Shown here: one piece after another, positions 17,494 to 20,804 of the stretch
Layout: each line of letters begins with the position of its first letter
How positions within the stretch are numbered: position 1 is the stretch's first letter
NCBI GenBank assembly: GCA_023920165.1
Contig: CP089281.1
Location: 1,984,001-2,048,000, forward strand
Length of the DNA stretch: 64,000 nt
Direction: 5' to 3'
Source: Curvularia clavata
Taxonomy: Eukaryota
Notes under the pieces: model-generated
Seen by the model: the letters and a program-made list of their open reading frames with translations, nothing else
The model's database searches: none
What the model was told of the DNA's origin: nothing
Made by a program: the position numbers and the translations under genes

Positions 17494-18444
17494 TTTTGAG
17501 TCGAAAGGCGACGAACGAATTGCTGATGGTTGTGATTTGAACAGCGAGCCCTCGAATTTAATTACATGCTCCTTTGCATTCACATGAACCAAAACATCGA
17601 GACCTATTTCTTATCCATTGTAATGTTTGTCTACGCGCCATGCTGCTTTGATTTGCGAAGAAGGCTCAATCATGAGAGCAGGGCCTAAATAGCACCAGCC
17701 CTGTCAGGGGATTGTAATGGGAAAAACTAGCAACACCGGGACTTGCTTCAGTCAGATTCATAGGCTGATTACGTGTATCTATTATGCGGAGCTGATTATC
17801 CTGTACACTGAGGAATTAAAGATTCCAGAAGCGGAGTATCAGTCTCAAATACATGTTTTGGGATTTTCAACTAGCTAGAACCGAGGTAATGTAATGTAGA
17901 GTATTTCTTCTGAATCTTCTCTGATACTTTTCTTTACGCTAATTTCATGACCATAGCAATAGCGGAAAATACTATGCCCAACTATGAGAGTTGTAAACTC
18001 GACTGCAATTTATGGTACTACCTTGGTGCTACTGTTTGAGCGACCGCCAGGAACTGATGCGTTCTGGCCAGTCCAGGGAGAATGCGGAATACGACGTAAG
18101 CCCAGATACTATCTCAAGGGGGCTAGAAAGGCTAATAAGACCGTATCAAATTATCGGCATAGCGTATGTCGGAGTTGGTATTCATCACAGATCATGAATA
18201 GACGATGCCACGAAGTGGTTGCATGTGATGACCCACCAAAAGTGTCAAGTTACCCGACCTAAGCTATCACTCCGACACTGCGGAGTAGAACCTGGCGTAC
18301 TGACGTTCTCCTCCGCCCCCCATCTCCGTTTTCGTCTATCCGCATTGAGATAAGATGTAAACCAAGGTAAGTTTTGTTCCCATAGTTTAAATACCACTCT
18401 ACTCTAGCCCAGACACCACCCTACTCATAAAGTAAGACTGGACC

Positions 18445-19543
18445 TTACTCTTTTTTCCTGCCGGCTTTCTATACCAGTAATAGTGGTTAGAAAAGTAGTT
18501 TTCTAATGTAACCTATAGATATAAAGTTTACTTACTTTCTAGAAAAATATCAATACGAGAAAATTATTGCATTAGTCTATAGTATAAGTATATTGGAGAT
18601 ACTTACGACCTAAAGTAGTAGTAAAGGTTAGTTAAGTGTTTTATTATATAGGTATATCAGATTTACCTACCATCTATACAAGTAGTAGTTATTAGTAGAG
18701 TATCTTGTATTCTATGGTATGGATACGTCAGATTTACTTACATCCTATGTGAGTAGTGGTAATTAATAAAAAGTTCTATGAGATAGTCTATTAGATTGCC
18801 TTACCATCTATATAAGTAATAGTTATTAGTAGAGTATTCTATTAACATGTTATATCAGCATGTTATATTTACTTACGATCTGAAGCAAAGTAGTTAACTG
18901 TTAGTAAATTATCTAATTAGTCGCCAGGAAAGATATATCCATTTACTCACCTTCTATAATATTTGTTTTCATTAGTAAATTCATTTATGAGTGTCTTTTG
19001 AAAGGTATAGAGATTTCTTACAGCCTATACGTGTAGTAGTTATCAGTAAGAGGTCTTCTTAATCTACTGTTTACTTATATTAGATTTAACGACTTACAAT
19101 CTACATCCATCAATTTTATTAGCAAAGCATCTTATCAGTCTGTGTATTGAGTAGTTATGTTAAGACCACTTACAGCCTGTACCAGTGATTGTTAGTAAAG
19201 TACTAAATATGTACATAATGTAGATAAATAGGGTTTAATTACACTCTATATCAATATTAGTCTATTACATCAATACCTCAGATTGACTTACTTTCTATAT
19301 CACCAGCAGTTATAAACAAATTATTACTTTAACGTATCGCGTATATAATTAGTATTTGCTTACATCCTATATTAGTAGAAGTAGTAATTAGCAAATTATC
19401 TTATTAGTCTGTTGTGGGAATACATGGGATTTACTTACGTCTCTGACCTGAACAGTGTTCCTCTGAATGTTTTCTTCCTCTCGCGCATTTGAGACTCCAT
19501 ACATAAGAGGTAGTAACATACTTAAGAGTATAAAGAATCTCAT
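18445..19543 (-). CDS. Micro-exon gene: 15 exons (105 nt, thirteen 3-nt exons, 24 nt) encoding a predicted 55-aa secreted peptide precursor
   Basis: Exon 1 (19543-19439) = MRFFILLSMLLPLMYGVSNAREEENIQRNTVQVRD. Then 3-nt exons with plus-strand low coordinates 19364, 19292, 19243, 19174, 19098, 19022, 18951, 18877, 18805, 18742, 18671, 18607, 18536 = D,K,S,A,I,A,K,I,M,D,M,V,K. Last exon (18468-18445) = KAGRKKE*. All 14 introns are phase-0 GT..AG, 46-73 nt. Confidence 0.8.
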
Positions 19544-19655
19544 GTTAGGCTCTTATAGCTGGAAAAATGTAATTCTTGTAATGTAGATAGAAAGTAATTG
19601 CGCGATTCACAGTTGTCGAAACTTTTAATTTCTAAAGTTAGAAGAATAATATACA

Positions 19656-19662
19656 TTTTATA
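19656..19662 (-). promoter_or_regulatory. Candidate TATA box of the micro-exon gene
   Basis: TATAAAA on the minus strand ~113 bp upstream of the ATG at 19543. The AT-rich context weakens the signal. Confidence 0.35.
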
Positions 19663-20804
19663 GGCACCGGTAGTTATAAAGAATATAGGTATTATCTCTA
19701 GAGGTGGGGCCGTTACAGATGCCGATGATAATATAGGGGTTTAGTACAAGCCTAGCGAATAGCTAAGCAGTCTAGTCAAGATTCGCTTTTGATAGCAGCA
19801 TACCCAATAAGATAAAAGCAAAGATACTGGTTAATATCATGAGATTTAGACATGATAATAGCTCTTGAGCCTCTATCAGATACACATCGGGCCCCCATCG
19901 GGTACCTCTCATGTACCGATCCCGATACAAAACTTTAGTCTGCAGCCATGGTAGGTTTTTATAGCTATAGCTCTGATATTAGACTAGCAAATCATATACT
20001 TTTGTAGATATTATAGTTATCTAGAGATTCCTATGTATTACATTTACATATGCATTAGTCACACTACTATTAAGATTCTAAGAGACTTTACTTAACATAT
20101 ATCTAGATATAGATCTTAGTAATTTTAGGATTTTAATGAGATTTTAGGTAGCGCACTTAGCTATATAATGTATGTGCCTGTGAGATATGTTATAAAAGAA
20201 GGATATATCACGCCTAAGCATAGTTGATCAGCTCTCTTGTTAGTGTTAGAGAATGATGCGCTGAGAGAACCAGAGCTGCAAAGTAGATACGCATTACACT
20301 TAGCTATGTTCAAGAACACGAAAGACAAACCAAAAGTCTAGAAGAGAAAGCGTTCTGTTATACTGAGCATCCCGGAACTCTTCCATCGACATCAGCGCAA
20401 TTATTGTGTCTTGGAGACAGCACAGCAGGAGCGGGTACTTATTTATAGCTAGCACGTGAACTAAAGTATTAATCTGGGGGTTATCGTGTGGGTATCAGCC
20501 AAGTCCGGGTTTCTAGCCCGATGGCCTGGCATCAGGCCTTCCATGATCTTATTCCCTTTCCTAGCACCTACCGCTACGCCTGTGTAATATGTGCAGCTAT
20601 CCCTTTACACCAATTACAGAACAAGAAGCCGAGCAAGAAAGAACAGAGTGTAAAGATAAACATTGTCGTTGCCGATTCTAGCCGGTAATGAACAAACAGC
20701 TATGCAGATGCTCAGATCCGATAATATATACACATTAGAAGACGAAAATCTCATCTTCAAGACTAATAATTTGCACACACGAAAGGTCTCTACAAGATCA
20801 TCAT

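Follow-up and report, generated by a model that had tools for sequence, protein, structure and literature searches.

Introduction

The micro-exon genes (MEGs) of Schistosoma mansoni carry exons of 6–81 bp, mostly of 15 bp, which are separated by introns of 100 to almost 5000 bp (PMC10526429). Among fungi, long reads of Coprinopsis cinerea support 27 3-nt exons, distributed over 26 genes (PMC12230235), a 1-nt exon is present in Fusarium CYP621A (PMC12940212), and a paper of 2024 describes functional microexons as previously undescribed in filamentous fungi (PMC11121469). Introns can be gained by tandem duplication within a gene, as in the potato RdRp case (PMC4974935), a process that has been called rare in fungi (PMC4457414). 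Repeats that are highly conserved apart from hypervariable positions are known from the NLR and het genes of Podospora (PMC1805685; PMC2873952; PMC4986451).

The gene model presented here lies in a fungal DNA stretch of 64 kb (the whole stretch that was analysed, hereafter the window) and is composed largely of exons that consist of a single codon. No description of tandem arrays of 3-nt exons was found in the literature searched, in which few subscription journals were covered. One-codon exons that alternate with uniform introns form a recurrent architecture, which is translated, codon-hypervariable and frequent in HET-domain genes, and which appears to be new.

Results

Gene model and splice signals

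The gene model occupies positions 19543–18445 of the minus strand, starts with an ATG at 19543 and ends with a TAA stop at 18447–18445. The first exon has 105 nt, each of the 13 inner exons exactly 3 nt and the last exon 24 nt, and between them lie 14 GT..AG introns of 46–73 nt with a GC content of 0.22–0.33 (Table 1). All 13 micro-exons are in phase 0 and, in agreement with the first-pass annotation, each of them represents one whole codon at the positions proposed there. The acceptors preceding the micro-exons are 11 TAG and 2 CAG, and in most of the 14 introns a CTAAY motif puts the branch A ∼18 nt from the 3′ end. By a regular expression 12 of the 13 junctions were matched, the 13th having the weak donor GTAATT. 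The strength of the splice signals is uneven along the array, with weak signals in 3 of the 14 introns (one GTAATT donor and two poor branch sites). These had already been pointed out in the first-pass annotation, and the donor at 19242 does read GTAATT, while the introns at 19363–19295 and 18804–18745 lack a CTAAY in the usual place.

The sole ATG from the TATAAA box to the start codon is found within the box itself, and the start ATG has an A at position −3. A GTAAGG overlaps the stop codon of the last exon and is, in principle, conceivable as a further donor.

Table 1 Features of the predicted gene (positions within the 64-kb window)
Feature	Position	Strand	Length (nt)	Characteristics
TATAAA box	19657..19662	-		114-119 nt 5′ of ATG
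Exon 1	19439..19543	-	105	35 codons, last codon GAC, phase-0 end
Intron 1	19367..19438	-	72	GTAAGT..TAG, CTAAT, branch A 21 nt from 3′ end
Micro-exon 1	19364..19366	-	3	GAT (Asp)
Intron 2	19295..19363	-	69	GTAAGC..TAG, only CTAAT 54 nt from 3′ end (weak branch site)
Micro-exon 2	19292..19294	-	3	AAA (Lys)
Intron 3	19246..19291	-	46	GTAAGT..TAG, CTAAT 11 nt from 3′ end
Micro-exon 3	19243..19245	-	3	AGT (Ser)
Intron 4	19177..19242	-	66	weak donor GTAATT, acceptor CAG, CTAAC 15 nt from 3′ end
Micro-exon 4	19174..19176	-	3	GCT (Ala)
Intron 5	19101..19173	-	73	GTAAGT..TAG, CTAAT at 18
Micro-exon 5	19098..19100	-	3	ATT (Ile)
Intron 6	19025..19097	-	73	GTAAGT..TAG, CTGAT at 18
Micro-exon 6	19022..19024	-	3	GCT (Ala)
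Intron 7	18954..19021	-	68	GTAAGA..TAG, CTAAT at 18
Micro-exon 7	18951..18953	-	3	AAG (Lys)
Intron 8	18880..18950	-	71	GTGAGT..CAG, CTAAC at 21
Micro-exon 8	18877..18879	-	3	ATC (Ile)
Intron 9	18808..18876	-	69	GTAAGT..TAG, CTAAT at 18
Micro-exon 9	18805..18807	-	3	ATG (Met)
Intron 10	18745..18804	-	60	GTAAGG..TAG, only TTAAT at 18 (weak branch site)
Micro-exon 10	18742..18744	-	3	GAT (Asp)
Intron 11	18674..18741	-	68	GTAAGT..TAG, CTAAT at 18
Micro-exon 11	18671..18673	-	3	ATG (Met)
Intron 12	18610..18670	-	61	GTAGGT..TAG, CTAAC at 18
Micro-exon 12	18607..18609	-	3	GTC (Val)
Intron 13	18539..18606	-	68	GTAAGT..TAG, CTAAT at 33
Micro-exon 13	18536..18538	-	3	AAA (Lys)
Intron 14	18469..18535	-	67	GTAAGT..TAG, CTAAC at 18
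Last exon	18445..18468	-	24	KAGRKKE + TAA stop

The array is not a chance product and cannot be read straight through

The junction motif YAG-NNN-GTRRG[TCA] is present 17 times on both strands of the window, and 11 of these 17 copies are located on one strand of the 830-nt stretch of the array. Shuffled sequences contained 11.3 such motifs over 128,000 strand-positions, corresponding to ∼0.07 per stretch of this size. When three units were demanded in succession, the pattern had one match in the window and no match in any of 100 shuffles. Since both the motif density and the three-unit pattern are far above the shuffles, an origin of the array by chance is excluded.

Across the array 26–35 stops were counted per frame in all six frames, ruling out a coding repeat that is read straight through. 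An in-frame stop is present in 13 of the 14 introns and the 14th intron shifts the frame, so that retention of any one intron is not tolerated. Conversely, any donor joined to any later acceptor leaves the frame intact. The first-pass annotation had derived from the phase-0 codons that skipping of any subset of codons keeps the frame and the KAGRKKE tail, and that 2^13 = 8192 splice patterns would lead to somewhat fewer distinct peptides. Both statements hold, the number of computed residue strings being 5648 with the empty one included.

Other types of loci were considered and rejected. A host gene for snoRNA or ncRNA was dismissed, as the introns contain no known RNA family; the Rfam search at E up to 1 returned two chance-level matches only, both outside the introns. 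Ratchet points of recursive splicing are ruled out by the 3 bases between every AG and the next GT, which leave no zero-length exon. A CRISPR-type array is likewise ruled out in the window, where the whole unit is conserved while 3 nt vary.

The introns are related to each other

Introns 9 and 11 form the best pair with 81% identity and a score of 37, and the 15 best intron pairs score at least 19.5, compared to a maximum of 16 among 300 shuffled pairs. A profile of the unit recovers all 14 introns with E values of 1e-13 to 3e-4 (intron 1: nhmmer E 9.9e-14), while the next match in the 64 kb has an E value of 6.1. All 14 introns descend from a single ancestral intron of ∼70 nt. Intron 3, the shortest of the 14, has the 3′ half of the unit deleted. 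None of the introns has a stable fold (z from −2.06 to +1.40 versus shuffles).

Pairwise diversity among the 14 units is 0.00 at GT, AG and the branch-site T, amounts to 0.26–0.40 at positions +3 to +6 of the donor and to ∼0.5 inside the intron, and reaches 0.69–0.79 at the second and third codon positions. The splice signals are under selection whereas the remainder of the unit has drifted, with the highest variability at the codon. Since the splice signals stayed invariant while the interiors diverged, the array has been kept spliceable. Tandem Repeats Finder did not detect the array, the units being too diverged, and the copies are therefore old or fast-evolving.

Codons are duplicated at both edges of the array (GAC/intron/GAT at the 5′ edge and AAA/intron/AAA at the 3′ edge), the last exon starting with the same AAA codon that forms micro-exon 13. 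An ATG follows both intron 9 and intron 11, which is a trace of unit duplication; beyond these pairs the codons are diverged. Due to the paralogous introns and the duplicated codons at the edges, we infer that the array has grown by repeated local duplication of units of one intron plus the following codon, each adding one residue.

The locus lies in an AT-rich patch with a GC content of 0.30. TpA/ApT is 1.40 here versus 0.79 in the whole window, and (CpA+TpG)/(ApC+GpT) is 0.66 versus 1.23. Despite these RIP-like dinucleotide indices RIP is probably not the main cause of unit divergence, since transitions do not predominate among the substitutions between units (1167 transitions versus 1195 transversions, ratio 0.98).

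Predicted product and setting of the locus

The first exon encodes Met-Arg, a hydrophobic core and Ser-Asn-Ala, with a mean Eisenberg hydrophobicity of 0.79 for residues 3–16, and this N-terminus looks like a signal peptide. The predicted spliced product has 55 residues, of which 35 belong to the mature part with its 10 Lys/Arg and 7 Asp/Glu. For the encoded segment the hydrophobic moment is 0.42 versus 0.24 in shuffles, a value that 6.9% of the shuffles reach; helical amphipathicity is thus not significant and only suggestive. A 51-aa query of exon 1 plus read-through retrieved no protein sharing words with it, and four RNA runs of the same species label, searched as contigs, gave no match on the locus. 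A look-up of RNA runs for positions 18250–19700 listed none.

The host is a Pleosporales ascomycete. A neighbouring gene encodes an S28 peptidase with 79% identity to Bipolaris victoriae and 65% to Clathrospora and is without intron. A PKS-NRPS cluster is also present in the window, and the flanking ORFs returned no useful family.

One-codon exon arrays in metagenome contigs

Metagenome contigs were scanned for three consecutive junctions, which yielded at least 131 loci. The pattern demands a 3-nt spacing, so the regularity of spacing in this set is partly built in. An array was defined as a run of 5 or more consecutive 3-nt exons with no fewer than three codon types. At least 117 arrays of 5–32 consecutive 3-nt exons are located on at least 89 of the at least 131 loci, the longest array among the matches listed having 32 units. 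As a control, the same pattern was applied to 596 Gb of prokaryote genomes and gave 48 loci, of which 17 were single matches, and the 31 with multiple matches were all titled cyanobacteria. One of the cyanobacterial loci (L150) is of CRISPR type with a constant 37-nt repeat, which contains the motif, and variable spacers. Two metagenome loci (L004 and L083) are also of CRISPR type and were left out of the array set.

Among the matches listed, 194 of 937 unit lengths are divisible by three, and most arrays are without a long open frame across them; both features rule out read-through coding repeats. We then asked for stop codons in the 68 arrays of at least 8 units among the matches listed. Only 3 of their 849 inner codons are stops, while 40.9 are expected from the positional composition or 45.4 from a model of position 1 × positions 2–3, i.e. 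stops are avoided 15-fold. Three control triplets (stops on the other strand) were found 11 times in these arrays versus 11.3 expected, and junction motifs outside the arrays of the same loci, again among the matches listed, contain stops in 69 of 754 cases. Since stop codons are avoided, the one-codon exons of this class are under selection to stay open and hence are translated.

When each unit of 69 arrays from the matches listed was compared with its most similar copy, the introns diverged at 0.094 per site and the codons at 0.56, with random codon pairs differing at 0.61. In 69 of these 69 arrays variability is higher in the codon than in the intron, which is plain in the rows of L089 and L091. 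Either the introns were homogenised after copying or the codons change fast. Some codons of L089 travel with an intron variant, and therefore units have been copied whole. Due to these codons, and to a noisy nearest-paralogue test (the introns are too alike to define the nearest copy), no independence of the codons from their introns is claimed, and only the plain diversity contrast was kept. Between the orthologues L064 and L098 there is 1 difference in 63 codon sites and there are 10 in 1463 intron sites, counts too low for a contrast of codon and intron.

The unit profile gave no nhmmer match at E 1e-3 to the at least 131 metagenome loci, and tblastn with exon 1 gave only E values of 3.7 and 8.5. 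None of the metagenome arrays among the matches listed appears to be a relative of the gene in the window, for which the class provides evidence by analogy. A few arrays among the matches listed have a GC content near 0.15–0.25 and may come from other eukaryotes. In 240 proteins searched for 6-residue words of the predicted array peptides, 3 matches to 2 proteins were obtained; as spliced array products, one (P0130) was dismissed for its unrelated context and the other (P0080) was taken for chance.

Genes that carry the metagenome arrays

Pfam assigned a HET domain (PF06985) to ORFs beside the arrays of at least 4 loci, and tblastn with 120 HET proteins revealed HET exons in at least 11 loci. 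Among the matches listed, the array lies directly upstream and on the same strand in 9 of the 9 HET loci with a detected array. In 7 of these 9 loci one of the acceptors leads in phase 0 into the HET frame, which carries little weight, several acceptors being on offer per locus. The HET ORF of L072 has 68% identity to a protein of Elaphomyces granulatus, and due to this resemblance at least the HET-linked contigs are assigned to filamentous ascomycetes. According to Pfam, L073 encodes a GPI-inositol-deacylase winged-helix domain and ankyrin repeats, and its arrays sit between the ankyrin repeats of one open frame.

The one-codon exon design thus recurs in fungal genes of self/non-self recognition, which fits a role in diversity. 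However, constitutive inclusion of every codon, with the diversity residing in the germline, accounts just as well for the avoidance of stops and for the recurrence in recognition genes.

Discussion

We propose, with a confidence slightly better than even, that the locus is a protein-coding gene in which the 13 one-codon exons are mostly all included in the product. Short introns of filamentous fungi are usually recognised by intron definition. The gene in the window would be transcribed from its TATA promoter, and each of its short introns would be recognised on its own. Since the splice sites of neighbouring introns are only 3 nt apart, these introns are probably removed one after another and not together. 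The main product would keep the 13 codons, giving a 55-residue precursor that, after cleavage of the signal peptide, is released as a Lys/Arg-rich secreted peptide of 35 residues. The arrangement is a fail-safe design, in which a wrong pairing of donor and acceptor loses residues but never the frame, and this may have let the array grow.

The same fail-safe framing allows for a different interpretation. As proposed in the first-pass annotation, donors might often join acceptors further downstream, creating a ladder of in-frame peptides that lack one or more residues and whose variety would be the function, and the sequence does offer 8192 patterns and 5648 strings from pairings that are all in frame. 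Evasion of host recognition or a broader target range would be conceivable purposes. Splice sites at a distance of 3 nt should hinder simultaneous recognition and could favour occasional skipping, for which the uneven signal strength along the array would also speak. However, the splice sites of short introns in filamentous fungi pair across the intron, and among the forms of alternative splicing in these organisms exon skipping is the rare one. In the metagenome arrays (69 of 69 among the matches listed) the codon exceeds the intron in variability, but codon diversity in the germline needs no splicing lottery. Furthermore, the avoidance of stops demonstrates that inclusion is common enough for selection to act, and constitutive inclusion explains it fully. 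The occurrence of the architecture in HET-domain and ankyrin NLR-like genes, classes that are known for fast diversification (PMC1805685; PMC2873952; PMC4986451), is in favour of this interpretation, which we regard as doubtful. A broader version would see one-codon arrays as a general fungal diversity device, with the spliceosome sampling subsets of codons in genes for secreted peptides as well as in HET/NLR-like genes; the intron repeat would then be kept uniform for the units to splice alike, while the single codon is free to vary. As a speculation, 3 nt may be the minimum size of an exon that is at once the 3′ exon for the preceding intron and the 5′ exon for the following one. We consider this generalisation unlikely.

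That the array is instead a relic of tandem duplication, dead or never expressed, with units that only look like introns and yield no product, is still less probable. The lack of matches in the four RNA runs of the same species label, the lack of a homologue for the 51-aa query and the AT-rich patch with its RIP-like indices would be in line with such a relic. However, 14 of 14 GT and 14 of 14 AG are intact at an interior diversity of ∼0.5, and the balance of 1167 transitions to 1195 transversions speaks against RIP as the main cause of divergence. Moreover, the first donor is directly preceded, in phase 0, by a hydrophobic exon that starts with ATG, and the last acceptor leads into a short exon ending with a stop. 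Stops are also missing from the 13 codons, which is weak alone, as the chance for this is ∼0.53. Removal of the whole array as one intron of ∼970 nt, or skipping of all micro-exons, would join exon 1 to the last exon in frame, with the inner units as passengers, and could at first have made a newly duplicated unit tolerable, but it is very improbable, because the inner splice signals would be free to decay and have not decayed, because it cannot explain the 15-fold avoidance of stops in the class (among the matches listed), and because an intron of this length is unusual for a filamentous ascomycete.

If these arrays are spliced as their sequences imply, they represent a limit case, in which introns are defined without exonic information over up to 32 consecutive one-codon exons. 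They would also provide a route to longer proteins, with one residue gained per duplication of an intron unit. The one-codon exon architecture is widespread in filamentous ascomycetes, common in soil fungi and apparently undescribed. Since gene finders miss such genes, small secreted peptides of fungi and the N-termini of HET proteins may be systematically mis-annotated. With the link to allorecognition and immune-like genes, and with uniform introns next to near-random codons, diversification based on splicing becomes a testable idea.

The gene in the window resembles the S. mansoni MEGs in several features (PMC10526429). Both have a coding middle of many short exons with lengths that are multiples of three (13 of them here), and the signal peptide and small secreted product of MEGs may have a counterpart in the signal-peptide-like start predicted here. 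Variation by alternative splicing has been proposed for MEGs, as it was in the first-pass annotation for the gene in the window, and genes of this kind are missed by automatic annotation (PMC10526429). In contrast to MEGs, whose introns are unrelated to one another, the inner exons of the fungal gene are all of 3 nt and its introns of 46–73 nt are copies of one another; the hosts, a fungus and a flatworm, differ as well (PMC10526429). The 51-aa query of exon 1 plus read-through gave no relationship to MEG proteins. The ultra-short exons of Coprinopsis and Fusarium indicate that fungal spliceosomes handle exons of 1–3 nt, but in these cases such exons are nearly always single, while here they form an array (PMC12230235; PMC12940212).

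As in intron gain by tandem duplication, where new introns are local copies that carry a few exon bases along, the introns of the array are local, and the edge codons fit this mode. The known cases add one intron, whereas at least 13 rounds with a spacer of exactly one codon would be needed here (PMC4974935; PMC4457414). The metagenome arrays among the matches listed extend this to up to 32 one-codon intron units, compared to the single gains known so far. Introner-like elements reportedly have a predicted stable secondary structure as a feature, a finding attributed to van der Burgt et al. in 2012, while the 14 introns of the array are without such a fold. With these elements the array shares a family of similar spliceosomal introns in a Dothideomycete; however, Introner-like elements are near-identical copies across unrelated genes, and the array consists of only 14 local copies within the 64-kb window (PMC4457414).

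A parallel to the metagenome arrays in terms of variability is provided by Podospora, where the repeats are conserved and only certain positions are hypervariable. The units of the metagenome arrays are alike and the codon is near-random, and the gene classes are also those with HET domains and NLR-like ankyrin repeats. The gene in the window differs from these by its predicted product, a small secreted peptide and neither an NLR nor a HET protein. The repeat of Podospora is a coding WD40, ANK or TPR unit, whereas the repeat of the arrays is an intron, with one coding codon per unit.

Results and discussion

One-codon exon arrays, i.e. runs of consecutive 3-nt exons separated by similar introns, were found in environmental ascomycetes directly upstream of the HET exon of HET-domain genes, with 5–31 exons each. 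The database proteins for these genes begin at an internal Met and leave the arrays out. An NLR-like gene with a winged-helix and ankyrin repeats (L073, also L074) carries such arrays, with 21 and 9 exons, in ankyrin repeats that follow one another; each array occupies the same site of its repeat, between '...CYTY' and 'TPL...'. At a further metagenome locus, L089, a 29-unit array has ATG as its first one-codon exon, with a further intron-like stretch in front of it. Here a 3-nt exon may itself supply the start codon.

Among the matches listed for the metagenome arrays (L001–L131), the length of the unit of intron plus codon is divisible by three in 194 of 937 cases, the other two classes comprising 313 and 430; this under-representation would fit selection for frame-breaking on intron retention, but units of one array are not independent. 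Codon position 1 in these matches is A in 0.21, C in 0.25, G in 0.34 and T in 0.20, without a purine rule. The Curvularia clavata gene has a purine as first base in all 13 micro-exon codons and in the codon that opens the last exon; peptide composition or, in this species, the sequence context of the acceptor may account for this. This gene lies in an AT-rich patch (GC 0.30 vs 0.48 in the whole window) with RIP-like values of both TpA/ApT (1.40 vs 0.79) and (CpA+TpG)/(ApC+GpT) (0.66 vs 1.23), and transitions do not predominate among the unit-to-unit differences of its array. The window also holds a secondary-metabolite gene cluster.

Positions of arrays and of genes in the window
Feature	Location	Remark
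Micro-exon gene, AT-rich patch	window 18445–19543 (-)	
Its 13 one-codon exons	window 18536–19366	
HET-linked arrays	L030, L036, L039, L044, L051, L057, L069, L072, L082	same strand as HET exon
NLR-like gene	L073:965–3441	
Array with ATG exon	L089:156–2057	
CRISPR-type array	L150:287–2237	Nostocales
Secondary-metabolite cluster	window 26800–55800	
Zn2Cys6 factor	window 26.8–28.4 kb	cluster member
MFS/TRI12-like transporter	window 30.2–31.7 kb	cluster member
P450 (first)	window 32.6–33.8 kb	cluster member
P450 (second)	window 41.7–42.9 kb	cluster member
Hybrid PKS-NRPS	window ~43.7–55.8 kb	KS, AT, DH, KR, C, A, PP + reductase
Alcohol dehydrogenase	within cluster	cluster member
Hydrolase	within cluster	cluster member

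Since the contigs of some arrays (L045, L046, L060, L087, L124) have a GC content of only 0.15–0.25, unlike typical filamentous ascomycetes, the one-codon exon design may reach beyond this group. In the control scan of prokaryote genomes (L132–L179), CRISPR-type arrays of Nostocales cyanobacteria, e.g. L150, matched the same pattern because their 37-nt repeat includes an acceptor-3 nt-donor look-alike. Recognisable by a constant triplet and a variable spacer, such CRISPR-type arrays are false positives to be filtered in any genome-wide search for micro-exon arrays.
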